Origin: Escherichia phage vB_EcoM-P3322 | DNA: 64,000 nucleotides | Sequence record: PV191315.1 | Strand: one strand, 5' to 3' | Shown: positions 6,507 through 52,659 of the stretch, one piece after another | Position numbering within the stretch: the first letter of the stretch is position 1 | How the letters are laid out: every line of letters begins with the position of its first letter | The notes under the pieces: model-generated | What the model was told of the DNA's origin: nothing | Seen by the model: only the letters and a program-made list of their open reading frames with translations | Database searches by the model: none | Translations under genes and position numbers: made by a program

Positions 6507-7115
6507 ATGCAGATAGTATGTGATTGGGATTTAGTTGTGGCTCCATTAGATGTTGCTTGGTTAGAATGGTTGAATAAGATTAGTGGACTTGGTGTTAAGA
6601 TAGACACATTCACAAAAAATGCAGACTATGATCTTACCAACTACTTTCCTGGTTTCAGGGAGGAGTTCAATATAGATCCTTACGGATTTCTGGATAATCC
6701 TCATCTCTATGATACAATGGGTTTTGTTCCAGGTATGCCAGATTTCTTAAAGTATGTTTCAAGGAAAGGTAGCAATCTTTTGATCGCAAGTGTGACAAAA
6801 GGTGGTCACTTAAGTTCTAAACATAAACATGTTTTAAGAACGTTAGATACGATTGATTTTAGCAAAGGATCTGGTAACGGCTTTTTTGCTACGAAAGAAA
6901 AATACTTATTGCCTTGTGACATAGCAATAGATGACAGGGCTGATAACCTACTATATTTTCCAGATGAAGTGGTTAAAATATATTTTAATACGCCTTATAA
7001 AGATAACCATCTAGAAGAACTAAAGAAAAAACCAAATGTTGTGATCACAGGTTTAGAAGATCAGTGGCTAACATGTTTGGATGTTTTTAACACTTTGAAC
7101 AATTTTAAAAACTAA
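6507..7115 (+). CDS. putative HAD-type 5'(3')-deoxyribonucleotidase
   Basis: RBS GAGGAGG; N-terminal DWD and later IDDRADN motifs resemble NT5C/HAD (recall only). Confidence 0.4.
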   Translation: MQIVCDWDLVVAPLDVAWLEWLNKISGLGVKIDTFTKNADYDLTNYFPGFREEFNIDPYGFLDNPHLYDTMGFVPGMPDFLKYVSRKGSNLLIASVTKGGHLSSKHKHVLRTLDTIDFSKGSGNGFFATKEKYLLPCDIAIDDRADNLLYFPDEVVKIYFNTPYKDNHLEELKKKPNVVITGLEDQWLTCLDVFNTLNNFKN

Positions 7116-13095: not shown

Positions 13096-13104
13096 GGAGA
13101 ACTG

Positions 13105-14097
13105 ATGCGCTATCTGGTAACAGGTGGTCTTGGTTTTATTGGGAGTGCCGTGGTGCGCTCTCTTTGTCAAGATCCTAATAACGAAGTTTTTGTCGTTGAT
13201 AAGATGGGCTATGCAGCAGATATTGAGAATGTAGGCGATATCACTCACGTTAAACTAAGCATGACAGATTTGGCAAACGAAACCCAGGTCAAAAGTTTAG
13301 TAGTAGAGTGCAATCCTGACTTCATCATTCACTTAGCGGCAGAAAGTCATGTGGATAATTCTATCAAGAATCCACGAGTTTTCATCGACTCCAATATTAT
13401 CGGTACATACAATTTATTGGAAGCTGCAAGGCTCCTCCCAAAAAATAAACTGAAGATGTTCGTACACGTCTCCACAGACGAAGTGTACGGCGATATGGCA
13501 GACTCTGGCGTTCCCTTTACCGAAGAGACAGCTTATGCCCCTTCAAGCCCGTACAGTGCGTCTAAAGCAGCATCTGACCATCTTGTGAAAGCTTGGCACC
13601 GCACCTACGATTTGCCTGTTGTGATAACCAACTGCTCCAATAACTTTGGGCCTTATCAACATCCAGAAAAGCTGATCCCAAAAATCATCACAAGTATCTT
13701 GACGAATAAAGAGATTCCGGTGTATGGTAAAGGCGACCAGGTGCGAGACTGGCTTTTTGTTGAGGATCATGCGCGAGCTATTCTTCAAGTGGCAACAGGT
13801 GGAGAACCAGGTCAAACGTATAATGTTGGAACACGTAATCCCAAAACCAATATGGAGATCATCTATATGGTTTGTGACTATATGGATACTGTACATCCAG
13901 AAGCAGTAACCTACCCTTCTTCCAACTTGATAACTTTTGTTGAAGATCGTAAAGGACATGACTTGCGTTATGAAATCAATCCTTCTAAGATAGAGTCTGA
14001 ACTGGGCTGGAGTGCAAACTCTACATTTGAACAAGATCTCTACTCAACGATTGAATGGTACTTAAACAACCCTCAATGGTGGAGTGAGAAAATTTAA
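13105..14097 (+). CDS. rfbB: dTDP-glucose 4,6-dehydratase
   Basis: [10 protein letters not shown] Rossmann motif, YSASK catalytic motif, RmlB-like length. Confidence 0.9.
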
Positions 14098-14105
14098 GGA
14101 GGGTT

Positions 14106-14984
14106 ATGAAAGGTATTATTTTGGCGGGAGGAAGTGGAACCCGCCTTCATCCGGTAACACGCAGTGTGAGCAAGCAATTGCTCCCTGTGTATGACAAACC
14201 CATGATCTACTACCCTTTATCGGTATTGATGTTGGCTGACATTAAGGATATTTTAATCATCACCACACCAGGTGATCAGGAAGACTTTCAGTATCTTCTC
14301 GGAGATGGGTCTATGTTTGGAATAAAACTCACTTACGCAATCCAATCCGAGCCACGAGGTCTTGCGGAAGCTTTCATCATAGGTAAAGATTTTATCGGAG
14401 AAGACTCTGTTGCTCTTATTTTAGGTGACAACCTATTCTTCGGACAAAGCTTTGGTAAACTACTGATTAACGCCAGTGAGATGGTAGATGTTTGGGGAGG
14501 AGCTTGTATTTTCGGGTATTTGGTGAAAGATCCTGAACGATTCGGTGTGGTTGAATTTGGGAGTAATCGTCAAGCTATTTCTATTGAAGAGAAACCTGAA
14601 AATCCTAAATCAGATTATGCTGTCACAGGTTTGTATTTCTATGATAACTCTGTTATTCAACGTGCATTAGAAGTAACCCCTTCCGCGCGTGGAGAACTGG
14701 AGATCACTGATATCAATCGCAGCTACCTAGAAGACAGGAAGTTACAAGTGGAAGTTCTCGGACGAGGATTTACTTGGCTTGACACAGGAACACACGCCAG
14801 TCTGATGGAAGCTGGTCAATTCGTGCAGACTATTGAGAACTGTCAAGGATTGAAGATTGCGTGCCTGGAAGAAATTGCTTTCAAAAAAGGGTGGATTTCT
14901 TTAGAGACTTTGGTGTATCATGGAAACTCACTGAAGAAAACAGAGTACGGGCAATACCTACTCAAATTAGCGGAGAGAAAATGA
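14106..14984 (+). CDS. rfbA: glucose-1-phosphate thymidylyltransferase
   Basis: [16 protein letters not shown]...[17 protein letters not shown] signature. Confidence 0.92.
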
Positions 14985-15547
14985 AAGTAGAAAAAACAAA
15001 AATTGAAGGTGCGGTAATTATCAAACCAGACGTTTATAAAGATGATCGTGGTTTCTTTCTAGAAACATATAATGAACAAAAATACGAAGATATTATTGGT
15101 AGACAAACTTTCGTTCAAGATAACATGTCTAAATCAAACTTCGGTGTTTTGCGAGGAATGCACTTTCAAACAAATAACCCGCAAGGTAAGCTAGTTCGTT
15201 GTGTAAGTGGGGAAGTATTGGATTTCGCTGTAGATTTACGTAAAGATAGTCCAACTTACGGTGCTTGGGACGGTGTTGTTCTTCGTGCACGACACCATAC
15301 GCAGTTTTGGCTTCCGCCTGGTTTGGCTCATGGTTTTATAGTTTTGAGTATGGATGCTATCTTTGAATACAAATGCACAACTCCATACGACCCTTCTAGT
15401 GAACAAAGTTTACGTTGGGATGATCCTGATATAGGGATCGATTGGGGCTTCGATATGATTTTTGACGAAGGTTTTAAACCTATTCTATCAACAAAAGATG
15501 CAATGGCTAAATCTTTTCAACAGTTACGTAGCGAGGGTGTATGCTAA
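14981..15547 (+). CDS. rfbC: dTDP-4-dehydrorhamnose 3,5-epimerase
   Basis: ATG overlaps rfbA stop (ATGA); RmlC-like DDRGFF and cupin motifs; track start 14861 is an upstream GTG. Confidence 0.88.
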
Positions 15548-16382
15548 CATATCTGGTATTGGGCGGTAATGGACAACTGGGACAAGCTTTACGTAAAGTG
15601 GCTCCTTCAAATGTATCTTTAATTTATCCTAAAGAACGTGTAGATATTACAAATTTTGAAGCTGTGCGAAACGCTATTATTGAAGATTATGTAGATGGTG
15701 TTATTAATTGCGCCGCTTATACGGCTGTAGATAAAGCAGAACATGATTTTGCTACTGCTTTGGCTGTTAATGCGTATGGACCTGCAAATATTGCGGCAGT
15801 GTGCAGCAAACTTAAAATTGATTTTGTGCATATTTCTACAGACTATATTTTTAATTATTCTCATCCTATTTTTGAAGATACTACACCTAACCCAATAAAC
15901 AATTATGGGTATACGAAAGAACTTGGTGAAAAATGGTGCGAGGAGTTAACCCAAATGCATATATTATTCGAACAGCCTCGGTATATAGCGAATTTGGAAA
16001 TAACTTTCTAAAAACCATGTTGTCTCGCTATAATGATGGACAACGTGATTTTATTATTGTTGCTGATCAGTTCTCTTGTCCAACATATGCTCCAGATTTA
16101 GCAGAAGCTATTTTTGAAGTATTAAAAACAGGTTGGTCAAGGTCTATTAAGACTTACCATTTTGCAGGAAGCCATCTTATTTCTTGGGCGGAGTTTGCGG
16201 AAAAGATCTTGACACAGATGCCAGAACCTGTTAAGATATCGGCGGTATCAGCTTCAACCTACAATGCTCCAGCAGCACGTCCGGTGAAGTCACAACTAGT
16301 AACCAGTCACTATCTTACAAAATCAGATTTAAATAAAGGTATTGAACAGTCTTTAGCAGTATTACTTAATAAGGAGAGGTAA
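15541..16382 (+). pseudogene. rfbD: dTDP-4-dehydrorhamnose reductase, interrupted by 1-nt frameshift in A5 run near 15928-15933
   Basis: N-terminal half (15541..16011) and C-terminal half (15933..16382) in different frames; together colinear with RmlD. Confidence 0.75.
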
Positions 16383-16642
16383 TGGAATTTGTAATTTTTG
16401 GTAAACCTAACTGTCAATTTTGTGAAATGTCAAAACAACTATTAACTATGCGCAATAAACAGTTTGAATATTTAAGTCTTGATCAAGACTATGATTTAGA
16501 ATCAATGACTAAAACAGTTGTTGATCTTACCGGAGTTCCTCCACGCACATTTCCACAAATTCTGTCCGAAGTGAACGGGGAGGTAACATACGTAGGCGGT
16601 TTTACCGAACTGCGTGATCTCATGGCTCAAATTGCGGAGTAA
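16382..16642 (+). CDS. nrdC: glutaredoxin (T4 NrdC-like)
   Basis: CQFC active site; C-terminal PQI...GGF..LR resembles T4 NrdC. Confidence 0.75.
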   Translation: MEFVIFGKPNCQFCEMSKQLLTMRNKQFEYLSLDQDYDLESMTKTVVDLTGVPPRTFPQILSEVNGEVTYVGGFTELRDLMAQIAE

Positions 16643-18136: not shown

Positions 18137-18637
18137 ATGGGTGTAGCAACAATAGCTATCGGAAGAAGCGGTATAGATGAGTGCTATCAAACGGGACTCG
18201 TAAAACCTAACGAATTTCGTCAAATTTGTGTAAACCATATTGAAAAAGAGATTGCTCTTACTTTAGAGAATATGACCCTCCGAGATAAACTGGAAATGTT
18301 TAAATGTTGGTGTCTAGGAGAAGATTGGCTTTTAAACCATTTTCAAGAACTTTCTGATAGTAAAGAAAGCTTGTTTGATTGTATAATAGGAATAGCTGGC
18401 TCCGATCCTAGCCTTCTGCACATAACAGAAGAAGAGGCGAAGTTACTGTTCTTAAGTAATTTGTTTAATAAGAAAGCACTGCTTGTTCGTGATTGCAGTG
18501 ATCTTCTTAATAACCCGCTCGCAACGTCTGATCAAATTTTTGTTGACAAAGAGACACTACGTGCGATAGAATACATCTGCAAATATGTGAATGGCGGGAA
18601 AGCGGTTCTTAAAACATTAACAGAGGAGGAAGAATAG
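18137..18637 (+). CDS. hypothetical protein
   Basis: RBS AAGGAGG. Confidence 0.6.
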   Translation: MGVATIAIGRSGIDECYQTGLVKPNEFRQICVNHIEKEIALTLENMTLRDKLEMFKCWCLGEDWLLNHFQELSDSKESLFDCIIGIAGSDPSLLHITEEEAKLLFLSNLFNKKALLVRDCSDLLNNPLATSDQIFVDKETLRAIEYICKYVNGGKAVLKTLTEEEE

Positions 18638-19329
18638 TGACGACAATTATTGCAACCAAAAATAAGATTTTGAGTGACGGTAAGGTAACTTTTGGTGGAC
18701 GTGTAGATTCTATTAATTTCAAAAAGGTTCGAAAAATTGGAGATTACCTTGTAGGTGGTGCTGGTCGTCTGACCTCCGTGCTTTCTTTCTTTCAATGGTT
18801 TGAACAAAATCTACAGTGCGAAGCAGCACGTGATGCTGTCCCTGGTTTGATGATTCACTCTGATCCAGACAAAGAAGATGAAGAATTTATTGCACTTGTT
18901 GTTCATCCAGATGGACGTATTTTCCTGCACGAAGGTAACAACCCAACACGTGCATATCCGATTGATGAAGAATATTATGCAGTAGGAAGTGGGTCAGACT
19001 TTGCTTTAGCTGCTCTTGACGCAGGGGCAACACCAGAACAAGCTATGGAAGTAGCTAAAAAGCGAGATGCTTTTTCTGGTGGTGAAACATTTATTGAAGA
19101 ACAAGACGAGATTATTGAATTAACAGACGATGATTTAGAAAACTTCTCCAAAGAAGAATTGATCAATCTTTTGAAATTCGGTAATCCCTACGGTGAAGAA
19201 GAACCTCGTAACGTGGCAGGTAACGAGGCGGATACTGAAGAAAAATCTGTTGCAGAAAACAACTTGACTTCTAAATCTGAAAATATTAATCTCGTAAATG
19301 TGGCGGATTTCGAAGGAACCGCTATTTAA
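18637..19329 (+). CDS. HslV/proteasome-beta-like Ntn peptidase with acidic C-terminal extension
   Basis: N-terminal MTTIIATKN (Thr1 nucleophile); GxGxxxS-like segments; GTG start after GAGGAGGA. Confidence 0.5.
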   Translation: MTTIIATKNKILSDGKVTFGGRVDSINFKKVRKIGDYLVGGAGRLTSVLSFFQWFEQNLQCEAARDAVPGLMIHSDPDKEDEEFIALVVHPDGRIFLHEGNNPTRAYPIDEEYYAVGSGSDFALAALDAGATPEQAMEVAKKRDAFSGGETFIEEQDEIIELTDDDLENFSKEELINLLKFGNPYGEEEPRNVAGNEADTEEKSVAENNLTSKSENINLVNVADFEGTAI

Positions 19330-20799: not shown

Positions 20800-20994
20800 A
20801 TGCAGAGCGGAGAAGAACTTTTAGAGAAACAATTCTCAACGCGTCAACAAGCTTTAAGTTATATGGTTTTTCTAAGCAATCTTGATGTGAATGAGATACT
20901 TTTACGGCGCGAAGGTAATTTCTGGAGCGTTAAATATCATGCAACAAGGTCTGTAATCTACCTGGAAGAGGCGGAATTCTCTTTGGTAGAATGA
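20800..20994 (+). CDS. hypothetical protein
   Basis: RBS AAGGAGGG. Confidence 0.5.
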   Translation: MQSGEELLEKQFSTRQQALSYMVFLSNLDVNEILLRREGNFWSVKYHATRSVIYLEEAEFSLVE

Positions 20995-21008
20995 TCCGAG
21001 GAGTAGTT

Positions 21009-21581
21009 ATGCGTTCAACTTTCACTGGCAAAATAAATGCTGGTTTGATTTTTACAGCAGTAAGCATTCTTAGCAAAAAGTTTAAAGTTGTTAACTTACC
21101 TGTGTGTGTCGATTTCGATCATGTTTTTGATCCTTCGAACCCCACTCGTTGCATAGTAAGGAGTAATGTTGAAAACCCAACAGAAAATCTTTTTTATGTA
21201 ACAAAACCATCTCAAAGCATACTTAACCAGGTTGAGGCGAAATTGATACCTAACGGTAAATATTACTCCTTTTTACCTTGTAAGTCGGTTGAAGTAGAGA
21301 ATAGCAATACTTTCGCTAATAACTTGTCTGTATTCGTTTTCTTTGTTTCACAGGAAGACGAAACAGATGAAATGGTAGCAACAGTGAGATCACTTTATGA
21401 CTCTTTAGGGGTTGTTTATAGTCAACAAGTGTGCGAAAATAATAAAGCCTGTGTAGATTTCATTATCAACGGTATTTGTGTTTGTAGAGTAGAATCTTTT
21501 TGGCTGCACGATACATATGTGACTGTAGCAGAGGTTATATCTGAACCAAGATTTAGTCATGCGGTTTCGTTAATAATTTGA
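21009..21581 (+). CDS. hypothetical protein
   Basis: ATG 21009 after GAGGAG. Confidence 0.55.
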   Translation: MRSTFTGKINAGLIFTAVSILSKKFKVVNLPVCVDFDHVFDPSNPTRCIVRSNVENPTENLFYVTKPSQSILNQVEAKLIPNGKYYSFLPCKSVEVENSNTFANNLSVFVFFVSQEDETDEMVATVRSLYDSLGVVYSQQVCENNKACVDFIINGICVCRVESFWLHDTYVTVAEVISEPRFSHAVSLII

Positions 21582-24510: not shown

Positions 24511-24521
24511 TAGGAGGTAAA

Positions 24522-24791
24522 GTGGGAATCGAAGATATCAAAGGTTATAAACCGCATACCGATGACAAAATTGGTAAAGTGAATGCTATTAAAGATGCTG
24601 AAGTTCGATTAGGATTAATCTTTGATGCTCTAATGTCTGAATTGTGGGCTGAACTGGATGATTGTGAAGATTTGGAAGAGTCTACCAATATATCCACCCG
24701 CCTTGACCAAATTTCAATAGCAAAGACTAAGTTGAAAGAAGCTTCTATGTGGGCCTGTCGTTCCGTTTTCCAACCAGAGGAGAAATACTAA
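24522..24791 (+). CDS. hypothetical protein
   Basis: GTG 24522 after TAGGAGG; track start 24483 lacks RBS. Confidence 0.45.
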   Translation: MGIEDIKGYKPHTDDKIGKVNAIKDAEVRLGLIFDALMSELWAELDDCEDLEESTNISTRLDQISIAKTKLKEASMWACRSVFQPEEKY

Positions 24792-40543: not shown

Positions 40544-40990
40544 TTAAACCTCTGTCAAAGAGAAACGCCAATCCTTACTACTACCTACACCAAGGAAGAT
40601 ATAGTTTCCGGTACTAACGGAATATCTCCAAGCGGGAATCCAATCAGGAATCTCTGGCTTATGGCTGTAGCCATAACGCTCGCCACTCGAATCTGTTGCA
40701 ATATAATTAACAAATTCAGGAACCTCTAAAGTTTCACCTTGATACTCTACACGCTTGAAGCCATCTTCCACTTCTTTCTCACCTTCTACCAGACAAGCAA
40801 GAAGTTTGATGTGAGGGCAAGTGAAATCTTGTCCTGGATAACGTGAACGGATATCGGTTAACAATGCGATCACAGCATCCGATAACTCTTTATAATCCTC
40901 ATATCTTACAAATGTGCCTTCTGTCGGATCATCAGGACACAAACGCCAAGCATCGTTGCAGTTTACAGCATAATGTCGCACTTTAGTCAT
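40544..40990 (-). CDS. hypothetical protein
   Basis: RBS AGGGGG. Confidence 0.6.
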   Translation of the reverse strand: MTKVRHYAVNCNDAWRLCPDDPTEGTFVRYEDYKELSDAVIALLTDIRSRYPGQDFTCPHIKLLACLVEGEKEVEDGFKRVEYQGETLEVPEFVNYIATDSSGERYGYSHKPEIPDWIPAWRYSVSTGNYIFLGVGSSKDWRFSLTEV

Positions 40991-41926: not shown

Positions 41927-42115
41927 TTATGCTCCTTTGTAGATTATGTTGGTGCGTTCACACTCTGCCACCAGCAAGCGATTAGCAATGTTGTCCATAG
42001 GAACATCAATCTCTACGCTCCAGGCATTGATATACACTTCTTCAATCTTTGCTCCAAGCATTTGTGCGATCAGAGCAACAGCCCCAGCATATTCAAGTTT
42101 AATCTCAATTACCAT
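41927..42115 (-). CDS. hypothetical protein
   Basis: ATG 42115 after GAGGTG. Confidence 0.5.
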   Translation of the reverse strand: MVIEIKLEYAGAVALIAQMLGAKIEEVYINAWSVEIDVPMDNIANRLLVAECERTNIIYKGA

Positions 42116-42129
42116 TTTGCACCTCAAGG

Positions 42130-42330
42130 TTATTTATCTTGCTTGTATCTTACAAGGCGATCACACTCCAGGTCAAGAAATTTCTCCGCATTTCGTTCGT
42201 GTTTGAGCACAATACATTGTTCTTTCCAGTCTGTAGCTCTTTGCTGCGCTGCTCCTGGGTCAAAATCCCAAAGCCATGCCGCGAAAAGAACAACCATAAC
42301 AATTACTAAGAAACTAAACACTATTGGCAT
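42130..42330 (-). CDS. small membrane protein
   Basis: ATG 42330 after AGGAGGA; TM segment IVFSFLVIVMVVLFAAWLW. Confidence 0.5.
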   Translation of the reverse strand: MPIVFSFLVIVMVVLFAAWLWDFDPGAAQQRATDWKEQCIVLKHERNAEKFLDLECDRLVRYKQDK

Positions 42331-42635
42331 TGCACATCCTCCTGTGTAGCATGGTCTTTTACCCATTTTATACGGGCAGCATTCAAATGCAATAGCCCGT
42401 TTCTTTGTGCAAAATCATATTTAAACCAGTCTCCGTCATCAAACGGGTATTCTTCAGACAATCCTGCCTCACGGAATTGCATTTGCATTTCATAATTTAG
42501 ATCATCATAACCTCCAGTCCAAAGGTAGAGGCAACTACATAATCCTTTATCATGCCAGAAAGGATTATTATCTGGAGCACCAGCTAATAGCCAATTATGA
42601 TATGCCTGATAAAATTCTTTAAGTTCCTCTGACAT
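42321..42635 (-). CDS. paralog family A member
   Basis: RBS AGGAGG; FYQAYHNWLLAGAPDN...GLCSCL...PF...HLNAARIKWVKDH. Confidence 0.65.
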   Translation of the reverse strand: MSEELKEFYQAYHNWLLAGAPDNNPFWHDKGLCSCLYLWTGGYDDLNYEMQMQFREAGLSEEYPFDDGDWFKYDFAQRNGLLHLNAARIKWVKDHATQEDVQCQ

Positions 42636-42812
42636 TTAACCTCCTGTATATAGTGTTGAAAGATACACAGCAAAAGCATTCTCGGCTGTTTTCACCTCCT
42701 CTTCAAGATCTTCACGCTCTGCTGGCGTTAATGCATTCCGCACAGCAGCGTCTGCTTCTCGGATTTTTCTTACTAAACGTGAAACATCTTTCAGTTGTTG
42801 AAAAGTAGCCAT
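42636..42812 (-). CDS. small hypothetical protein (58 aa)
   Basis: Below track threshold; RBS AACAGGAGAAAG. Confidence 0.4.
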   Translation of the reverse strand: MATFQQLKDVSRLVRKIREADAAVRNALTPAEREDLEEEVKTAENAFAVYLSTLYTGG

Positions 42813-42827
42813 AGTCTTTCTCCTGTT

Positions 42828-43187
42828 TTAGTGAGTGTCGCGCCATTCGGCAATCTCTTCGGCTAAACGATCACAAGAATCGAAAGCCACTTTACCTTCG
42901 CCAGGGTAGTTCCAGAAGACACCCCGTGAATCTGTAATGTTTATATGATACTTGTCCCACATCTCTTTTGCAAGTGGTCGATCAACATATCCTTCAAAAT
43001 ATACTTCAGTTTCTGCTGAATATGGAGTGTAATCGCTGGCAGCAAAAGCGTTCTGGAAGATCACCATCACATTACGTGTTGTGCTTGGATGCATCAATTG
43101 GTGAAATTTTAACAATCTTCCGTTGATCCTAACAACATCTCCTTCAAACAAGGAGATATCTTTTACTTTACGAAATTCTCCGCTCAT
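42828..43187 (-). CDS. hypothetical protein
   Basis: RBS AAGGGGG. Confidence 0.6.
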   Translation of the reverse strand: MSGEFRKVKDISLFEGDVVRINGRLLKFHQLMHPSTTRNVMVIFQNAFAASDYTPYSAETEVYFEGYVDRPLAKEMWDKYHINITDSRGVFWNYPGEGKVAFDSCDRLAEEIAEWRDTH

Positions 43188-43196
43188 TTTACCCCC

Positions 43197-43388
43197 TTAA
43201 TACACATCTCCTACAAACCAGATTTCTGGATCGCCATACTGATCCTTCTCGTAAGATTTATAGACACTACAGCAATATTTCAAAACACCATCGACAAGGA
43301 TTGTTGATCTTTCTTCTGGAATCTCTGTGATTTCACCTTTGCGGGTTTCGAAGATGGTATCACCCTTTTCAATCAGTCTGATTTTCAT
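43197..43388 (-). CDS. hypothetical protein
   Basis: Track ORF. Confidence 0.5.
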   Translation of the reverse strand: MKIRLIEKGDTIFETRKGEITEIPEERSTILVDGVLKYCCSVYKSYEKDQYGDPEIWFVGDVY

Positions 43389-43587
43389 ATCGTACTTCCT
43401 TCAATGCGAGTAATGCATTTACCAGATTATCAACACCTTGATCATCCAGTGCGATAACATCGAAGTTAAACCCTGTGTCAGTTGGGACTTTACGTTTTAT
43501 GGTGTAATAGTCCCCTTCATGACGTTCAACATACACGTATGGGTAACTGCTGTTCGGATCATGTTTCACGCGAATAGATGTTTTCAT
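43369..43587 (-). CDS. hypothetical protein
   Basis: RBS AAGAGGAG. Confidence 0.55.
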   Translation of the reverse strand: MKTSIRVKHDPNSSYPYVYVERHEGDYYTIKRKVPTDTGFNFDVIALDDQGVDNLVNALLALKEVRYENQTD

Positions 43588-43602
43588 GTTTTGTTCTCCT
43601 CT

Positions 43603-43839
43603 TTAGTCAAACCAGTTGTATTCAGAAGGGTAACGAGCGTAGTTTGGCTTATACCCCAGCCTTTTCATCTTGACAGACATACGAGTGAAGCCAAAAGTTG
43701 TTTTGCCCTTAGACATAAACTTCTTCCCACTCTTCATTGGCTTCTTAGGGTCTTTGATCGTCTGGTGTAACGCTCGCGCAAGCCACAAAGTGTATGCGCT
43801 CGGCACTTGATTAACTTTCATCTTGTTACCTTTCATCAT
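43603..43839 (-). CDS. small basic protein
   Basis: ATG 43839 after GAGGT; Lys/Arg-rich. Confidence 0.5.
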   Translation of the reverse strand: MMKGNKMKVNQVPSAYTLWLARALHQTIKDPKKPMKSGKKFMSKGKTTFGFTRMSVKMKRLGYKPNYARYPSEYNWFD

Positions 43840-44135
43840 TTTACCTCGGACCAATCAATAGTGATCCACTCGTATGCCCCGTTCAGATCCATTTCTTTAT
43901 AAACAATAAGCCCACGCTCACGAAGAATTGCTACTGCTTCATCCATCCACTTCACCTGATTGTAGATCTGCTCTGGGTGGGTGGGAGAATTATTCAGACC
44001 AAAATCGGATGGCGTGAAATTTCTTGAAGAGTTTCCCGCTCGGGCTTCAGCAAAACATGTCTCGATCACTTCTTCAACAGGGAAATTGAAGGAAGCTTCT
44101 TTTGCAATACGGCGTAACTGTTCGGTCAGATTCAT
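43836..44135 (-). CDS. hypothetical protein
   Basis: RBS AAAGGAG. Confidence 0.6.
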   Translation of the reverse strand: MNLTEQLRRIAKEASFNFPVEEVIETCFAEARAGNSSRNFTPSDFGLNNSPTHPEQIYNQVKWMDEAVAILRERGLIVYKEMDLNGAYEWITIDWSEVK

Positions 44136-44162
44136 CTTATTCTCCTTTCGTTGTGCGAAACA

Positions 44163-44600
44163 TTATAACAGATCTAATGCTTTCAACTCTTCTTTCAATG
44201 ATTCAGGCAGGTCACATTCAATGTCAATCAGAGATAACAAGTGACCAACAATGCCTTCCAGATGTTGATACTCACTATAACTTATAAATTCAGAATTGTA
44301 AACAGAAACATCCTTAGTTTCTTTCACAACTTCCCCCGCAGACACGCACATAAAAAAGTTACGCTCTCCGCGAGCTAACAATATCTCCCAACTCCTGAAC
44401 GGATACTGTCCAGCTTCAATAATATCTCCACTGTCCAGTAAAGTCAATGAGCAAACAGACCCTGATTCACTAACATCTTCGACGCGGAAACAAGACCCTT
44501 CAATCAAAGCTGCCATTTTGAAATTTTCATCAGAGATCATAGAGAAAGCTTCACATGCAGCTTTACTTTTGAAACAATAAACAGCATTAACTTTAAACAT
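44163..44600 (-). CDS. hypothetical protein
   Basis: RBS AAAGGGGAA. Confidence 0.6.
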   Translation of the reverse strand: MFKVNAVYCFKSKAACEAFSMISDENFKMAALIEGSCFRVEDVSESGSVCSLTLLDSGDIIEAGQYPFRSWEILLARGERNFFMCVSAGEVVKETKDVSVYNSEFISYSEYQHLEGIVGHLLSLIDIECDLPESLKEELKALDLL

Positions 44601-44612
44601 AACATTCCCCTT

Positions 44613-45068
44613 TTAAACAAAAGATACGCCGATGGTAGCAACAACCAAACGTTTATAAACTTCAACCTCTTCTGTAGGATTAGCCATTTTATGCTCTGCT
44701 GCTTCTTTCAAAGCTTCTTCATAACTTTCAAATCCAGAAATACAGGTGTCATCAGTCATTACAACATACCACTCTTCTTTTGTTGTATCAACAGGTTCTT
44801 CTTGGGGTTTTCCACGACCACCGCGAATACCACCGTCAACAAAATAATCTATATGAGCAGAATTGATTATGTAACGATCCCCATCACTAGCAGTGATAAT
44901 ACCGTCTCTCCCTATCACAACAATTGACAAGATATTACCATTTGCATCAGTGCTCAACACCTCGAAAAAATTCTCTCCAATGATAGCAGCAATACTGTTA
45001 TCAAAGGTAGAATATAGTCGCATATAATCCTCATCCTGGAAACGGTAGACATGACCTTCTTTAAACAT
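44613..45068 (-). CDS. hypothetical protein
   Basis: ATG 45068 after GAAGGAG. Confidence 0.55.
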   Translation of the reverse strand: MFKEGHVYRFQDEDYMRLYSTFDNSIAAIIGENFFEVLSTDANGNILSIVVIGRDGIITASDGDRYIINSAHIDYFVDGGIRGGRGKPQEEPVDTTKEEWYVVMTDDTCISGFESYEEALKEAAEHKMANPTEEVEVYKRLVVATIGVSFV

Positions 45069-45161
45069 TGTATGCTCCTTCTTGTTCAAGAGTAAAAGGA
45101 ATGATCTCACCATAGCTGTATTGCATGGCATCCACTTCTGCTTCTGCACGTTGTGCTAGTT

Positions 45162-45254
45162 CTAATGTTGCACAGATCTTGTAAGGGACAGTGCTGCATT
45201 GGCTCCAGCCTGGGTATTCTTTGTTACTAAATATACAGTAGTTCCTTTATTCAT
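45162..45254 (-). CDS. small hypothetical peptide (30 aa)
   Basis: Strong RBS AGAGGAGAAAG; below track threshold. Confidence 0.25.
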   Translation of the reverse strand: MNKGTTVYLVTKNTQAGANAALSLTRSVQH

Positions 45255-45708
45255 AACTTTCTCCTCTTAGTTCATCATACCATTTCAAAGCGTCTTTTGG
45301 AAGCATACCAAAATCTTCTTTTAGTTCTTTTTCAATCTCTTCTTGCATTTCCATCAGCGTTTTCAGTTGACGGACTTTTTTGTGCATAGCCACATTCCTT
45401 TCATTAAGGTTTGTCACTACATTATTTGCACGACTTGGTGGAAATGACAAAGGTTTCACGGGAAGATAATCTTCGATATTATCTAGTGCGTTACGAAAAT
45501 TATGATCCAAGAAACGTACATCTACACGATTGTAATCGGCAGCTACAACAGTGAACACTTTAAACGGCACATTGGATAAAGTATGTTGCACATAGACAGT
45601 ACCCATATTGCCTTCAATTTTACTATTAACTTCCAGCAAACCTGTATGAGCACTAACATAATCGTGAACACATTGCACATAAGCTGCCAGTATAGTGAAT
45701 TGTCTCAT
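45247..45708 (-). CDS. hypothetical protein
   Basis: RBS GGGGAGG. Confidence 0.6.
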   Translation of the reverse strand: MRQFTILAAYVQCVHDYVSAHTGLLEVNSKIEGNMGTVYVQHTLSNVPFKVFTVVAADYNRVDVRFLDHNFRNALDNIEDYLPVKPLSFPPSRANNVVTNLNERNVAMHKKVRQLKTLMEMQEEIEKELKEDFGMLPKDALKWYDELRGESYE

Positions 45709-45953
45709 TTTCTACCTCCCCATAATGCTAACATTTTATTGAAAATGGAAACGCGTCGTGCGCGAGATGCCATATCATAATTCATTCTTTCCGTCTCTGC
45801 AAGAAATTGATCTACTGTAATCAACGCTTTTGTCTTCTCTTTCAGAGTTTGCATATTCATCCATTCACATTCAGAATACCAATTATCGAAATACAAACTA
45901 TCAAGAAGATCCATTGCTGCTTCGTTCTGCTGTGGTGTGATCATTGCACACAA
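45705..45953 (-). CDS. hypothetical protein
   Basis: Track ORF; start likely internal ATG. Confidence 0.5.
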   Translation of the reverse strand: MCAMITPQQNEAAMDLLDSLYFDNWYSECEWMNMQTLKEKTKALITVDQFLAETERMNYDMASRARRVSIFNKMLALWGGRK

Positions 45954-45956
45954 CCT

Positions 45957-46187
45957 TTAATAGACAATTTCATATTCGTGAGGAAAGAAAACATAATCTT
46001 CCCCTTCTCGTGCATCTATCTCGTCCCAAAACCATTCCTGCACTTCCATCATCTTCGAGAATCGCACATGAGCAAGCCCACTGTATTCCACCGTAGCTTC
46101 CAGCACAAGTGGAAATTTTGCATGTGCCAATCCTTTATAACCACCATCATTCTCAATACGAATTTTCATGCGTTTCATATTATGCAT
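45957..46187 (-). CDS. paralog family B member
   Basis: Shares W.W........DYVFF motif with 41704..41925. Confidence 0.55.
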   Translation of the reverse strand: MHNMKRMKIRIENDGGYKGLAHAKFPLVLEATVEYSGLAHVRFSKMMEVQEWFWDEIDAREGEDYVFFPHEYEIVY

Positions 46188-46389
46188 CCTTCAGACCCTT
46201 AATGAAATAACGACCAACCGGATTCCCTCGGAAGTATTCGTTAATGAAATCGATAACACACGTTTCACTACCTGTCACAACGGACGGTGCGAAGTTTCGG
46301 AACTGCACGAGTACACGACTTGCGTTAGCAAGGGTGTGCACACGATCAGTGTTAGCTAAATACAAGGATACAGTTTTCAAATTCTTCAT
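46180..46389 (-). CDS. hypothetical protein
   Basis: RBS GAGGAG. Confidence 0.55.
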   Translation of the reverse strand: MKNLKTVSLYLANTDRVHTLANASRVLVQFRNFAPSVVTGSETCVIDFINEYFRGNPVGRYFIKGLKDA

Positions 46390-46438
46390 TTCATCTCCTC
46401 ATTGGCTATCTGTTATGTCATCCATTATACAAACATCT

Positions 46439-46813
46439 TTATTCAAAGCAAACATTATTTGCATCTTCAATTCTGTCTTTCACCCATTGAAGACGTAACG
46501 TGTTGGTATGACACGCCAAGTTTATACACTCTGAAAGGTAATCCATGCAATCTGCATTGAACGGAAGATTGTAGTCCAGCCCTGCACATGTAAACTGTTT
46601 CCTCATTTCGTATTTCAAACTATCCAACAAACGATCACGCCATCTTTTATCTTCTTCTCTGGTTGTCTCACCAACAAAATCATCTACATAATCTACCAGA
46701 CAACCACATAAGCCACTCGTTGTGCGATTCATTGCAGGATAGTTGGCAATCCATGCTTTATAGAAGCGAAGCAATGTTGCACTACTCAACGGAATATTTT
46801 TACTCTCTTGCAT
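46439..46813 (-). CDS. paralog family A member (N-terminally extended)
   Basis: RBS GAGAGGAG; FYKAWIANYPA...GLCGCL...PFN...RLQWVKDRI. Confidence 0.6.
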   Translation of the reverse strand: MQESKNIPLSSATLLRFYKAWIANYPAMNRTTSGLCGCLVDYVDDFVGETTREEDKRWRDRLLDSLKYEMRKQFTCAGLDYNLPFNADCMDYLSECINLACHTNTLRLQWVKDRIEDANNVCFE

Positions 46814-48434
46814 GACAATCTCCTCTCATCGTTAGCCATCTTTCATGGCAATCATCAATCACCAACATCATACGATCAATCTCAGGGAATTACAATCGAA
46901 TTATCATAGGGGATTCCTATCAATTATCCCATATATACCGATTATTTTTGACACCCCACTCTTGTATAAAAAGTAACCCAAAATATCTACGGGGAGAGAT
47001 TATTTCGGGACACCCTGTTTCATGGCAATCATGGCAAGAATATCTAATAGAATCAATATCATATGGCAAAAATCATGACGCATACGTAAGAAGTGCTTAA
47101 CGCGAATTTTCGGGCCGTCAGGTCCACGCAGCGACAATTCCCAAATATCATGAGAATGAGAATAATTATCATTCGTATTCAATGACTTATGCAAGGCTCA
47201 TGCCAACATAGCGACAAGGTGGGCCACTTGATTATAAATCACACAAACACTTATTTATCAATAGGTTGGCAACTTCATCATATGACGGAACATTGTCAAC
47301 TGATCCCGCTCATGACAAGCAGACTATTATTTATATGAGAATGATTATTATTTAAACGTTTATTAACATAAAAATTAAAATAAATCAAGAATTTTCTGAT
47401 TTTATTTACGTTTAAGAGAAGATGCTCAACATCCTACCGGATCGCCGTTGGCAATCCTCGGATATTTACGCCCCCATGATTAAGGTTTATCTCTTTTCTT
47501 AGTGCTCAACATTCCCGCCCGTGGCGGTAACATTTCGCCCCCAAAATTATTGCTTTTTATTCTATTATGTGCATAGTGTGCAATGTATCGGAATGATGAT
47601 AATCATCCTCCCATTGCCCCCATAATTATTGCCATGCTAATGATTTCATCTTGTAATTACCACAATGATTATTGTTATTGCGCTAATGTTATGATCTTGG
47701 TAATTACATATAATGCTAATAATAAGCCAGCGCAATAAGTGTAAGCGTCATTACGCTTGCAATTATTGCAAGCTACGCAGTAACAAGAAATAACCATCAC
47801 CGATGGTTATGATTGTTGGGGTGTAGTTGGCTTATTATTAGCTCGCTATGTGTCCGGCATAGCGTGCTAATGATGATCCTGGGAATGATTCGTTTTGTAA
47901 TGATTTCATTCAGTCACTATTATGGCAATAGTTATTATTTTAATGGTTTCGTTTGTTATTGTTCGTTAGTTGGTTGTTTTGTCGTGTTATCGTTATCTTG
48001 CTTAGTATTCATCATGGTTTGATTGTTTGTCGTTATCAATCATCTTGCTATTATTCCTTTGATTATGATTAGTTTGCTTATTGTTTTAGGTTGTTGGTTA
48101 GTTAGTTGTTGCGAACTATTATCAACATTATAGTTATGCACTTATATTGCATAGATAAACATGGATAGATGATAATGGTTATCATTGAACTAGAAAAGAG
48201 GTAAAAGGGTGTTTTTGATGGTTTGTTGTTGGTTGTTGATCGATTTTAACCGCTATAAATGGCTCTCTAACAGCCTGTTACCCTGGGAGGTATGGTTATT
48301 CGTTTAATGGTTGATTAGCTCGATACCGCGATTTATTCAATTTTGTTCTGTGTCGGTTTTTCATAGGCGAAAGCTATCAACATTGTTCGGGCAAAAAGAA
48401 AGGGCGCTTGGTGCGCCCCTTGTTTTGTTGTCGC
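46814..48434. other. 1.6-kb ORF-poor region with iterons, palindromes and a GT-skewed tract; candidate origin/packaging/regulatory region
   Basis: No convincing ORF; direct repeats gctaatg..atcttg.taattac; perfect palindrome gcttgcaattattgcaagc; GT-rich low-complexity 47930-48130. Confidence 0.5.
48398..48429 (-). terminator. bidirectional hairpin terminator (copy 1 of AAGGGCGC-N5-GCGCCCTT)
   Basis: aaagggcgc-ttggt-gcgcccctt flanked by T/A runs. Confidence 0.6.
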
Positions 48435-48854
48435 TTATAACGCTTCATAGATTGAGTAGATCCGGTTTGCCAGATCATTACGAAAGCGGAATTTTTCATC
48501 ACGTTTGATCATCAGATCCTTAAAACCGCATTCTTTCAGTGCTTCATTAACTTTATGGCGGCAAACGTTCATATTATCCTGCGCGTCACCAATAAACTTA
48601 TTGCTGTGATGCATTGCTTTGATCTCTTCCTCTAATACCAGGGCAACTACACGGATCGGATCAAGCTGATATGCGGTAACATCCATGCGGCATTGTAGAC
48701 GGCTTTTAACATCGTTTACCGGATATACTGCAACCTCTTCCCCGTCAACGTTCACAATAACCAATTTACCATCGATTTCGAAGCCTTTGGCGGCGCTACC
48801 GTGACAAAAAGCGTTATCGAAGGAGTAAGCTGGATTATTTGATTTAATGTTCAT
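48435..48854 (-). CDS. hypothetical protein
   Basis: ATG 48854 after AAAGGATAA; track start 48938 lacks RBS. Confidence 0.55.
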   Translation of the reverse strand: MNIKSNNPAYSFDNAFCHGSAAKGFEIDGKLVIVNVDGEEVAVYPVNDVKSRLQCRMDVTAYQLDPIRVVALVLEEEIKAMHHSNKFIGDAQDNMNVCRHKVNEALKECGFKDLMIKRDEKFRFRNDLANRIYSIYEAL

Positions 48855-48894
48855 AGTGTTATCCTTTGTTTCGTTGTTTGCTGCCAGTGAATTA

Positions 48895-48923
48895 AATATA
48901 ATATAACGCCGATCCCCTGTCAA
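48895..48923 (-). promoter_or_regulatory. sigma70-like promoter embedded in palindrome
   Basis: rc: TTGACA-17nt-TATATT; -35 flanked by atcccct/aggggat inverted repeat. Confidence 0.5.
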
Positions 48924-48959
48924 TAGGGGATAGCGCATTATTTACATTTCTTTACGTTA

Positions 48960-48980
48960 AAGGGCGCTTAGTGCGCCCTT
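48960..48980 (-). terminator. hairpin terminator (copy 2 of AAGGGCGC-N5-GCGCCCTT)
   Basis: aagggcgc-ttagt-gcgccctt. Confidence 0.55.
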
Positions 48981-48988
48981 GTATAATC

Positions 48989-49357
48989 TTACTTTGTGCT
49001 GTTGTAAACGTTATCGCGTTCAACCATCACGGCAAGGCGGATCAGTTGATCAGTTGTATCGCGTAAATTGTCGGGCCATGTTTTACTGTTCCAGCTATCC
49101 AGGTTTGATTGTATATAGGTTTCAATGGCTTGATCCATATTATCAAACAAGTTTTCCTCCAGGCTCTCGGCTGTTTCACACTGGAAAGCATTAGCGACAC
49201 TATTAATCAATAAGCAAGCCAGTAAATCAGCATTACGCCAATTTTTACGGATAGTTTCATCTGTCAAATAACCAACGAGATTAACCTTTGCGCCAGTGGT
49301 TGACGTTGCGATCACTTCTTGTGCTTTTTCAAGTGCTTTAATTGCTGATTTGCTCAT
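48989..49357 (-). CDS. hypothetical protein
   Basis: RBS AAAGAGGAAAAG. Confidence 0.6.
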   Translation of the reverse strand: MSKSAIKALEKAQEVIATSTTGAKVNLVGYLTDETIRKNWRNADLLACLLINSVANAFQCETAESLEENLFDNMDQAIETYIQSNLDSWNSKTWPDNLRDTTDQLIRLAVMVERDNVYNSTK

Positions 49358-49369
49358 CTTCTTTTCCTC

Positions 49370-49425
49370 TTTGTGGGCTTGCTGTATTGCTCGCCCTACG
49401 CAATAACTATAAGTTAACAGGAGAA
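49370..49425 (-). promoter_or_regulatory. PeSL-like unit (degenerate)
   Basis: gcccTACGcaataa core; weak stem gggc/gccc. Confidence 0.35.
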
Positions 49426-49435
49426 ATAAAGCAAG

Positions 49436-49669
49436 CTATTTTTTATAAAATTTTTCTGCTGTGATATTCTTCCCAGTAGGCTTAACCACTTGCAAGATCT
49501 TATCATGTGCCGAACGTCCAAAAGAGTAAGATCCGTACACGGTAAACCAATAATCCCCGTTCGGTTGAACGGTTACGGCGGCGTACGGTGTACCTCTTTC
49601 ATTATCCCCGATGAAGTGAGAAACATTACCGTTAACATTTGGTTTAGTGCTTTTAATTTGTTCGATCAT
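49436..49669 (-). CDS. hypothetical protein
   Basis: Track ORF preceded by PeSL-like unit. Confidence 0.6.
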   Translation of the reverse strand: MIEQIKSTKPNVNGNVSHFIGDNERGTPYAAVTVQPNGDYWFTVYGSYSFGRSAHDKILQVVKPTGKNITAEKFYKK

Positions 49670-49685
49670 GATATGACTCCTAAAT

Positions 49686-49748
49686 CAGGCGGGAAACATT
49701 CCCGCCCTACGTGATAAATGATAATGTAAGCGTGATCCGGTGTCAATA
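49686..49748 (-). promoter_or_regulatory. PeSL-like unit
   Basis: hairpin ggcgggaaacattcccgcc; rc TTGACA-17-TATCAT. Confidence 0.65.
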
Positions 49749-49887
49749 GGTAGGATTGTAAAGATTTGATAGTTTATCTCTTTGATGTTTTGTTGTTTGA
49801 TAGATGTTAGCTATCAATATATAGCGGGGTCGTCCGGTGATTATCTTCCCCTGCTCCCAGGTGCCGCCCGTTCAATAAGTATAACAA

Positions 49888-49913
49888 AAAACAGGACAAA
49901 AACAAGCCCTGTT
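49888..49913 (-). terminator. hairpin terminator (minus strand)
   Basis: aaacagg-acaaaaacaagc-cctgttt with T-run on minus. Confidence 0.45.
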
Positions 49914-49921
49914 TATTTATC

Positions 49922-50056
49922 TTAAAACCAGTTGCCAACCGTTTCCAATAGGTCACTGACTACCAGGACAACATTAATCAGCACATATTCAACCAGGAAG
50001 GGAATAAGCGCCAGCGTTGCTACTACGATCCCCATTGTGATGATTACCTTTCTCAT
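49922..50056 (-). CDS. small membrane peptide (44 aa)
   Basis: Below track threshold; ATG 2 nt after upstream stop; hydrophobic. Confidence 0.35.
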   Translation of the reverse strand: MRKVIITMGIVVATLALIPFLVEYVLINVVLVVSDLLETVGNWF

Positions 50057-50058
50057 GG

Positions 50059-50343
50059 TTAGCGGCTTACGTAAGCTTTACCGTTTACGGTCATCGGTAT
50101 GGCCTCAAGGTCTGGATCTTCCTTAAGGTCGCGTGCAAGCTCACCGCAGCGGATACCCTCGAATCCGTGGTATTCTGTCGCGCCGTCCTGGAAAGTTTTA
50201 GCGGCAAGGCATAGGCGATAATTAACACCGATCCGGTTTACCGCGTTGATATCGGTTAACGTGATGGATTCAGGCAAATCATTAGCCATTACAGGCGCGT
50301 TAATACCAACAACCAGGGCAACTACTGCGATCATCTTTTTCAT
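50059..50343 (-). CDS. small secreted protein (signal peptide)
   Basis: MKKMIAVVALVVGINAPVMA; PeSL-like hairpin upstream. Confidence 0.6.
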   Translation of the reverse strand: MKKMIAVVALVVGINAPVMANDLPESITLTDINAVNRIGVNYRLCLAAKTFQDGATEYHGFEGIRCGELARDLKEDPDLEAIPMTVNGKAYVSR

Positions 50344-50369
50344 GTGTCTATCCTCTTCCTATTGCGTTT

Positions 50370-50392
50370 AATGGGGGCGTTACCGCCCTGCT
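50370..50392 (-). promoter_or_regulatory. PeSL-like hairpin
   Basis: gggggcg-ttac-cgccc. Confidence 0.5.
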
Positions 50393-50398
50393 TATGGT

Positions 50399-50635
50399 TT
50401 ATTGATTGATGTTATAATGAAAATTATTTTCTTCAATAGCTTTTAAAATAAAAGCCGTGATCGCTTTCGTGTCTACTTGTTCGAACGTATCAGAATAGCA
50501 CCAATAATAATCATCCCCTACTTTCGGCGGGTAAACCTGGACAAGGAGATCGCCACCTGGTTGATCTATAAGCTCAACATGCAAGCCGGATGATTCAGCG
50601 GTTTTAACGGCGGTTAATACTGTTGCAATACTCAT
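50399..50635 (-). CDS. hypothetical protein
   Basis: Track ORF; hairpin upstream. Confidence 0.6.
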   Translation of the reverse strand: MSIATVLTAVKTAESSGLHVELIDQPGGDLLVQVYPPKVGDDYYWCYSDTFEQVDTKAITAFILKAIEENNFHYNINQ

Positions 50636-50652
50636 AATCTTTTCCTTTCTGA

Positions 50653-50672
50653 TGTGGGGCGTTGCCGCCCCT
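50653..50672 (-). promoter_or_regulatory. PeSL-like hairpin
   Basis: ggggcg-ttgc-cgcccc. Confidence 0.5.
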
Positions 50673-50679
50673 TTGTTGA

Positions 50680-50979
50680 TTAGATCGCTGTTTCCAGTAG
50701 TTCGGCTAACGTCTTACCGCCTGATAGTTGGTCTAACGTTTGCTCTTCTGGCAAGAAATTAGCTGATATTAATCCGACTTGATTTCCTTTGTGCCAATTA
50801 GCTTGACGGATGATTCCATCCTTTAAAGATTTTACCGCCATTGTGCAACCGTCGCCAAATGATTCATTTTTATGATCCATCACTTCATAAGCGCCCAGCT
50901 TGCTACTGTTAGGCACCATTAACGCGAATACATCACCAACAACCAGTTTTTCTACGGTAATAATAGCGATAGTTTCCAT
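50680..50979 (-). CDS. hypothetical protein
   Basis: RBS AGGAAAG; PeSL upstream. Confidence 0.6.
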   Translation of the reverse strand: METIAIITVEKLVVGDVFALMVPNSSKLGAYEVMDHKNESFGDGCTMAVKSLKDGIIRQANWHKGNQVGLISANFLPEEQTLDQLSGGKTLAELLETAI

Positions 50980-50985
50980 TTTACT

Positions 50986-51046
50986 TTCCTCATTATCGGC
51001 GGCACCATTGCCGCCCTACGTGGTAAATATTAGCACACTGGCGATC
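50986..51046 (-). promoter_or_regulatory. PeSL-like unit
   Basis: hairpin ggcggcaccattgccgcc; rc TTGACA at 51039-51044. Confidence 0.65.
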
Positions 51047-51060
51047 TGTGTCAATACTTT

Positions 51061-51447
51061 TTATTCAATATAAATCAAATTATCTTCACCAATGTAAGCC
51101 GACACGTTCGGCATAAACTTAGCTGCATTGGTTAGGCGGTTGGCTGTGTTAGTGGTGTATATTTCAGGGCGATCCCAAAAGCCTACGCCGTGACCGTTAC
51201 GGGTAAAATGTAAATCATTCCCGATCTGGTTGGCTGTTGCGCCGTCGCTCATTGCCTCAGAGATAGCGGCAAGATTAGCATTAATAAAGGCTGTTACATC
51301 CTGGGCGATCCGTTGATCTGCGCTAGGAGAAAAATCATAATCGTCTAAGTTATCAATAAAATTACCTTCATGATCCCTTGCTGATTCAGCAAAAATAAAG
51401 GCTTCTTTATAGCCGTTGATGATTTCAATAATGATTTCTGTTTTCAT
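51061..51447 (-). CDS. hypothetical protein (conserved HFTRNGHGVGFWDR motif)
   Basis: Track ORF, 128 aa. Confidence 0.6.
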   Translation of the reverse strand: MKTEIIIEIINGYKEAFIFAESARDHEGNFIDNLDDYDFSPSADQRIAQDVTAFINANLAAISEAMSDGATANQIGNDLHFTRNGHGVGFWDRPEIYTTNTANRLTNAAKFMPNVSAYIGEDNLIYIE

Positions 51448-51668
51448 GCTGTACGCTCGACAATAATAATAGTTTGCGGGATCTCGTTTTCTACTACTAA
51501 CAAGGCTTTTTTCTGTGTGATAGATATTTTAACACGTTGTAAAGTAGCGGTAAAATCTTTCATTTCATTATGCGCGGATTTAGTACAATGCCAGATCTCA
51601 GGCTTACCAACTTGTAAGCCGCGTAAAAATTCCGTTTTGCCTGTTTTGTTCGTGATCATTTGTTTCAC
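51444..51668 (-). CDS. hypothetical protein
   Basis: Track ORF, overlaps neighbours. Confidence 0.55.
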   Translation of the reverse strand: MKQMITNKTGKTEFLRGLQVGKPEIWHCTKSAHNEMKDFTATLQRVKISITQKKALLVVENEIPQTIIIVERTA

Positions 51669-51669
51669 C

Positions 51670-51774
51670 TTAACCGATACCGTGGGAAGATAGGATCATA
51701 TTAGCCATAGTTGCAACTACTCCAACCGATAACGCCAGGCCAACCACTGCAACCGTGAAAATTTTCTCTAACAT
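51670..51774 (-). CDS. small single-TM peptide (34 aa)
   Basis: ATG 51774 after GAGGGTAG, downstream of PeSL; track start 51873 reads through the hairpin. Confidence 0.45.
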   Translation of the reverse strand: MLEKIFTVAVVGLALSVGVVATMANMILSSHGIG

Positions 51775-51790
51775 GATTCTACCCTCATTA

Positions 51791-51856
51791 ATGGGCGTTG
51801 CACCATTGCCCCGCCCTACGTAATACACTTTACTAGATAACAAATTATTGTCAAGC
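51791..51856 (-). promoter_or_regulatory. PeSL-like unit
   Basis: hairpin gggcgttgcaccattgccccgccc; rc TTGACA at 51849-51854. Confidence 0.6.
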
Positions 51857-51857
51857 T

Positions 51858-51995
51858 TTATTTTACTTCCCAAACGGAAAATTCGCTGCCTGTTGGGATC
51901 ATTTTTTTAATCTTGTTTGCTGCCGCTACCAGGTCAACGGCTTGTACTGTAATAATATAACCAATTGTCGAGGCTGTTGCGTTGAAAGTTTTCAT
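51858..51995 (-). CDS. small hypothetical protein (45 aa)
   Basis: Below track threshold; RBS AAAGGG; perfect palindrome upstream. Confidence 0.35.
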   Translation of the reverse strand: MKTFNATASTIGYIITVQAVDLVAAANKIKKMIPTGSEFSVWEVK

Positions 51996-52012
51996 TATAT
52001 TGCCCTTTAATA

Positions 52013-52034
52013 CAGGCGGGATTAATCCCGCCTT
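52013..52034 (-). promoter_or_regulatory. perfect palindromic hairpin
   Basis: ggcgggattaatcccgcc. Confidence 0.5.
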
Positions 52035-52039
52035 TTTGA

Positions 52040-52210
52040 TTACTCTTCATTATCGCCGTTATAGTATTCAATGCCGTTTTCATCGGTTACGGTGATGTTA
52101 ACGCCACCGATAGCAACACGATCACGGGCAAACGTCATAGCTTCATTTAAATCTTCAGACCAAAAAATATTGTGACCTTTGCGCGATACATAAAACATAG
52201 TCGGGATCAT
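52040..52210 (-). CDS. hypothetical protein
   Basis: ATG 52210 after AGAAGAGAAA; track N-terminus reads through PeSL. Confidence 0.5.
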   Translation of the reverse strand: MIPTMFYVSRKGHNIFWSEDLNEAMTFARDRVAIGGVNITVTDENGIEYYNGDNEE

Positions 52211-52230
52211 GATTTGTTTCTCTTCTGTTA

Positions 52231-52296
52231 TGAGCGGTGGACCATTCCGCCGCCCTATGTGGTAAACTTTACTACGTTGTTTGCCTGCTGTCAAAC
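52231..52296 (-). promoter_or_regulatory. PeSL-like unit
   Basis: hairpin agcggtggaccattccgccgccc; rc TTGACA at 52289-52294. Confidence 0.6.
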
Positions 52297-52580: not shown

Positions 52581-52598
52581 GATTTTTCTCTCTTCTTG

Positions 52599-52659
52599 TG
52601 AGCGGCACCATTGCCGCCCTACAAGATACATATTACCAGATTAAGCGGACTTGTCAAAC
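52599..52659 (-). promoter_or_regulatory. PeSL-like unit
   Basis: hairpin agcggcaccattgccgccc; rc TTGACA-17-TAATAT. Confidence 0.65.

Follow-up and report, generated by a model that had tools for sequence, protein, structure and literature searches.

The window, a stretch of 64,000 nucleotides from Escherichia phage vB_EcoM-P3322 (PV191315.1), belongs to a Phapecoctavirus genome (phAPEC8-like, Stephanstirmvirinae) that carries the gene cluster rmlB-rmlA-rmlC-rmlD. The genes are arranged in the order nrdA, nrdB, small ORFs, rmlB, rmlA, rmlC, rmlD, glutaredoxin and lysozyme, which is the same in annotated relatives. The region is 99.2% identical to that of Escherichia phage tuntematon over 24 kb, and its identity to phAPEC8 and many other Phapecoctavirus members is about 98.5-99%.

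All genes of the cluster are on the plus strand. Those adjoining rmlD upstream are intact, and each scores above its NCBIfam equivalog cutoff. They are rmlB, encoding dTDP-glucose 4,6-dehydratase (13105-14097; TIGR01181, 431 bits against a cutoff of 365), rmlA, encoding glucose-1-phosphate thymidylyltransferase (14106-14984; TIGR01207, 465 bits against 361), and rmlC, encoding dTDP-4-dehydrorhamnose 3,5-epimerase (14981-15547; TIGR01221, 225 bits against 156). The RmlB protein is identical to those of tuntematon, nieznany and phAPEC8. RmlA has a private nonsynonymous substitution, E62Q, at position 14289 (codon 62), which is not found in the four relatives compared. The stop codon of rmlC overlaps the start of rmlD (ATGCTAA). 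Downstream, the glutaredoxin gene (16382-16642, plus strand) is coupled to the rmlD stop in relatives with an intact rmlD (TAATG) and has a strong Shine-Dalgarno sequence of its own, AAGGAGAGG.

The place of rmlD is occupied by two ORFs, identified from the ORF calls and profile matches. The 5' ORF (15541-16011, plus strand, frame 1) encodes 156 amino acids. Its first 131 codons are native; 25 codons in the wrong frame (15934-16008) come next, before the TAA stop at 16009-16011, and the peptide ELGEKWCEELTQMHILFEQPR comes from the truncated tail of its product. The 3' ORF (15933-16382, plus strand) encodes 149 amino acids in frame 0, which is -1 relative to the 5' ORF. It corresponds to Met132-Arg280 of the intact protein, the substrate-binding half, and its stop overlaps the glutaredoxin start. 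The frames part at gaaaaatgg (15928-15936), where the A run, 15929-15933, is five bases long in the window sequence. An earlier note had described rmlD as split by one nucleotide at this A5 run, and both its coordinates and its frames were confirmed.

The Pfam RmlD_sub_bind profile, 287 positions long, matches the 5' ORF at positions 4-145 (E = 4e-37) and the 3' ORF at positions 136-266 (E = 9e-31). The two ORFs thus represent a single RmlD in two colinear halves, as the earlier note had proposed, far beyond what chance would give. A search with the TIGR01214 profile yields the same picture of two halves. Because frame 0 has a TGA stop at 15927-15929 and the homology in frame 1 ends after Lys131, the shift must be confined to the A run. 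Insertion of one A, predicted earlier to restore a single reading frame, does so: the resulting ORF is 843 nt long and its 280-residue product is identical to the RmlD of phages tuntematon and nieznany. In an alignment with nieznany and phAPEC8 the lone gap is situated in the A run, which is A5 in the window and A6 in the other two. This A6 run is the longest homopolymer of the intact rmlD gene.

The comparison with related phages that the earlier note had suggested found A6 and an intact gene throughout, in 64 GenBank records and three contigs. Thus the A5 homopolymer (15929-15933, plus strand) is the site of a 1-nt deletion relative to A6 in all of these relatives. In a nucleotide search with rmlD, all 40 of the full-length matches listed span 843 nt for a query of 842 nt. 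A 91-nt probe centered on the A run matches 64 GenBank (INPHARED) phapecoctavirus records, none at 99% identity, and in each match listed the stretch of the record is one base longer than the query, as expected for A6. A scan for the pattern with A5 or A6 retrieved three contigs (IMG/VR and JGI metagenomes), all with the longer form, and gave no match in GTDB genomes, RefSeq complete E. coli genomes or PLSDB. A contingency (phase-variable) locus would have a long, hypermutable tract whose ON and OFF lengths recur in one lineage. Here the tract is six nucleotides long in the intact gene, A6 is found in 67 of about 70 sequences, counting the assemblies described below, and A5 stands on two backgrounds.

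At the protein level, a tblastn search with intact RmlD recovered one uninterrupted piece (at least 80% coverage) in 149 of 150 phage records. Identity in such single-piece matches goes down to 54% or lower, the Justusliebigvirus and phiWec phages being at 54-65%. The gene is therefore normally under purifying selection and conserved across the subfamily. By sequence comparison, the loss of one nucleotide that gives A5 is rare and derived, and not a conserved feature.

Some of the rmlD matches are labeled as coming from hosts other than Escherichia. Campylobacter phage B15, Acinetobacter phage vB_AbaM_ABPW7 and Klebsiella phage ZCKP1 show 98.5-98.9% identity in rmlD to E. coli phapecoctaviruses, and one of the 70 rmlD matches at 95% identity or more bears a Pseudomonas label. 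Several of these host assignments seem doubtful.

Two Logan contigs, each of 50-200 kb, encode exactly the same truncated product of 156 residues; the product of the 149-residue C-terminal ORF was not found in the protein collection searched, and exact searches with a 121-residue C-terminal piece and with the RmlA of the window gave no match either. One of the two contigs, SRR32236305_686 (144 kb; L004 below), was read in detail and carries A5. It has diverged from the window by about 1% (81 sites in 11 kb and 133 sites in 9.4 kb) and differs from it elsewhere by 3-nt and 6-nt indels. One in-frame 3-nt difference, in the number of GAA repeats, is at 19195 within the ORF 18637-19329. L004 lacks rmlB and rmlA and has rmlC-rmlD only. 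Its rmlC haplotype differs from that of the window and resembles that of OBRO01000001.1, a metagenome contig in which rmlC and rmlD likewise stand without rmlB and rmlA, but whose rmlD is intact with A6. The rmlC-rmlD haplotype of the window is that of tuntematon and nieznany.

The presence of A5 on two genomic backgrounds suggests either recurrence at a hotspot homopolymer or recombination of a short tract. Nearly all sequences are the same over 15787-16145, so that these two cannot be told apart. The private substitutions in rmlD, at 16262 in the window and at 15786 and 16205 in L004, are all synonymous. No signature of relaxed selection was found in rmlD, where the sites are too few to be informative.

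Among phapecoctaviruses, rmlB and rmlA are present or absent as one block. There are 22 GenBank records with rmlC-rmlD but without rmlB and rmlA, among them ZCKP1, anhysbys, nepoznato, Mt1B1_P17 and WPEC1/2/4/6, and rmlC and rmlD are intact in all 22. The junction is identical in the Logan contig, the metagenome contig and the 22 GenBank records, and is situated at the GGAGA that the ribosome-binding sites of rmlB and rmlC have in common. The block spans 13101-14971 in the window; the junction is at 9432-9436 in L004 and at 6775-6779 in the sequence L007. Phages without rmlB and rmlA may rely on dTDP-4-keto-6-deoxyglucose supplied by the host.

The complete dTDP-rhamnose pathway of phapecoctaviruses and phi92-like phages has been termed "peculiar", and glycosylation of DNA by this pathway was offered as speculation only (PMC7552041). 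A "rhamnose modification" is mentioned in a later paper for phages that are nonetheless sensitive to many restriction systems (PMC10844046). The rml cluster is conserved across Stephanstirmvirinae without a demonstrated role, and DNA rhamnosylation is a speculation (PMC7552041, PMC10844046).

Membership of the RmlD family was assessed with TIGR01214 and PF04321, the former having a curated equivalog cutoff of 224.05 bits. The two ORFs of the window score 121.7 and 103.1 bits, both below the cutoff; the protein with the A restored scores 237.4 bits and exceeds it. The 5' ORF keeps the NAD(P)H-binding motif GxxGxxG (GGNGQLG, residues 8-14) and the catalytic SDR residues, which are found in STDY (99-102, with Thr100) and YGYTK (122-126, the Tyr122-x3-Lys126 motif). 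These motifs align with their equivalents in the structures 3SC6 and 1VL0. The product of the 5' ORF lacks the last strand of the Rossmann fold (YIIRT) and the whole substrate-binding half. The cofactor-binding and substrate-binding halves are not on one polypeptide, being encoded by two ORFs in different frames.

The deletion of one A from A6 would truncate RmlD after Lys131 and thereby inactivate the phage dTDP-4-dehydrorhamnose reductase, while rmlB, rmlA and rmlC would stay intact. Both fragments are predicted to lack activity, and the phage-encoded pathway would end at dTDP-4-dehydro-L-rhamnose. The earlier note had placed the stop at a dTDP-4-keto-6-deoxy sugar, which is correct in principle, with the reservation that RmlD of the host could carry the pathway further. 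E. coli K-12 and many O-serotypes encode RmlD (RfbD). Host RfbD could complete the synthesis, to judge by the usual course of the Rml pathway and by E. coli genetics.

The reliability of the assembly was assessed by comparing the window with its relatives. Over 40 kb there are three single-base indels between the window and tuntematon: in the rmlD run, at 20785 and at 21190. At the last two positions L004 aligns to the window without a gap, and the sole gap in the sequence L005 is that in the rmlD run. Since L004 and L005 agree with the window at 20785 and 21190, tuntematon is the outlier there. Over 20 kb, L004 and the window do not differ by any 1-nt indel. Among the homopolymers of the window are 27 A6, 36 T6, two A7 and three T7 runs, and within its well-conserved 40 kb no other homopolymer discrepancy with the consensus of the relatives was found. 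The segment 42-64 kb was omitted from the census of errors against tuntematon, as it is too divergent and has many intergenic indels.

Several features of these regions were observed in passing. The ORF 20991-21581 (196 residues) is single in the window, L004 and an IMG/VR contig, and has a T6 run at about 21190. In tuntematon the annotation has two CDS in its place (tuntematon_224 and 225) and the run is T5, so that tuntematon looks frameshifted at the T run matching about 21190 of the window. The difference at 20785 is intergenic, T4 in the window and T5 in tuntematon, and adjoins an AGGAG ribosome-binding site. The minus-strand early-gene region (40559-40642 and 42000-60000) has 92-97% identity to tuntematon with many short indels, the metabolic region at 1-40 kb being much closer. 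A small ORF at about 24520-24791 (18979-19248 in L004) has the Pfam domain Acb2_Tad1_hairpin, according to matches on the Logan contig; this is an anti-CBASS/Thoeris sponge fold.

The A5 tract is probably a genuine and recent A6-to-A5 loss-of-function deletion in rmlD. Its simplest explanation is slippage during replication of this run, the longest homopolymer in the gene. The allele may be tolerated, as the rml cluster is accessory and many E. coli hosts encode RmlD. The private substitutions being all synonymous, the event would be very recent, although this pattern equally fits an artifact. Of the possibilities raised by the earlier note, a true pseudogene is the best supported, as a recent event. 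Most likely, a phage gene that is well annotated in general carries an ordinary frameshift here; a basecalling error is less probable, and the locus is not a recoding device.

The foremost alternative is a sequencing or assembly error, the phage being truly A6 and one A having been lost in basecalling or in the consensus. A single base in a homopolymer is the classic type of error, the restored protein is 100% identical to those of the closest relatives, and all private changes in rmlD are synonymous. However, two further assemblies contain the truncated product, and one of them demonstrably represents another genome, in which the gene order differs. Furthermore, the window has many A6, T6, A7 and T7 runs, yet only the run in rmlD is discrepant in the well-conserved 40 kb. 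A random error is unlikely for these two reasons. A site-specific, systematic miscall common to the window and the SRR32236305 assemblies is conceivable. The suggestion of an error in the earlier note is thus weakened, and we consider this explanation unlikely on the whole; reads of the phage are expected to carry A5.

A variant of the genuine deletion is that the A6 tract is a recurrent target and that its loss arose independently on the rmlBACD and rmlCD-only backgrounds, being advantageous or neutral on some hosts. This is a rather improbable reading. If it were true, recurrent loss of rmlD would provide a natural series of knockouts for studying the role of the Stephanstirmvirinae rml module.

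Programmed recoding would produce full-length RmlD either by -1 frameshifting on A_AAA or by slippage of RNA polymerase adding an A. The tRNA-Lys on AAA 15931-15933 can re-pair perfectly at 15930-15932, from where the -1 frame reads Met132, and trace spontaneous slippage at A5 is conceivable. However, the X XXY YYZ heptamer is absent: the zero-frame codons are GGT GAA AAA TGG, of which only AAA can re-pair at -1, whereas GAA and TGG cannot. No stimulatory Shine-Dalgarno-like element was found 10-14 nt upstream of the A run. The 80 nt downstream of the run fold with -14.4 kcal/mol (z = -0.80), which is no better than shuffled sequences, 36 of 200 folding as well. Bacterial RNA polymerase slips appreciably at A/T runs of roughly 8-9 or more, and A5 is below the length for transcriptional slippage. 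None of the 64 GenBank phapecoctavirus records needs a two-frame arrangement. Programmed recoding, and with it the slippage option of the earlier note, was rejected as highly improbable: there is no conservation, heptamer, stimulator or structure, and the run is too short.

Equally improbable is a split enzyme whose halves are translated separately and reassemble, the C-terminal half starting at ATG 15933, which is exactly at the junction (the native Met132), or by reinitiation at ATG 16017, which is 5 nt past the stop of the N-terminal fragment and from which the gene caller used on the Logan contig predicts a second piece of 121 residues; the break is inside the Rossmann fold, before the strand YIIRT, the N-terminal fragment bears 25 junk residues, and a split RmlD is found in no relative. 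A working two-piece RmlD is moreover unlikely because neither ATG has a usable Shine-Dalgarno sequence, the GGTGA before 15933 being just 3 nt away and nothing having been found upstream of 16017.

The annotation of this genome ought to mark rmlD as frameshifted or as a pseudogene. Variants with a broken rmlD, or without rmlB and rmlA, are ready genotypes for studies of DNA modification, host range and fitness.

The closest known counterparts are the RmlD/RfbD proteins of Phapecoctavirus (phAPEC8, AFU62673.1; tuntematon, QHR72068.1), which are encoded at the same place, after rmlC and before glutaredoxin. Unlike them, the window has a frame broken after Lys131 and no single polypeptide at the family threshold. 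The bacterial RmlD structures 3SC6, 1VL0 and 1KBZ are solved homologues, and the window shares GxxGxxG, Thr100 and Tyr122-x3-Lys126 with 3SC6 and 1VL0. With E. coli dnaX (A AAA AAG) the site has in common the A-rich lysine codon context and the -1 direction. Unlike dnaX and the G/GT sites of phage tail chaperones, it has no heptamer, stimulator, structure or conservation, and the relatives have the gene in a single frame. Frameshift pseudogenes formed by homopolymer slippage are an ordinary class of indel in AT-rich phage and bacterial genomes. The window allele resembles them in being a rare, derived loss of one nucleotide from the longest run with unchanged flanks, and differs from the typical case in being situated on two genomic backgrounds.
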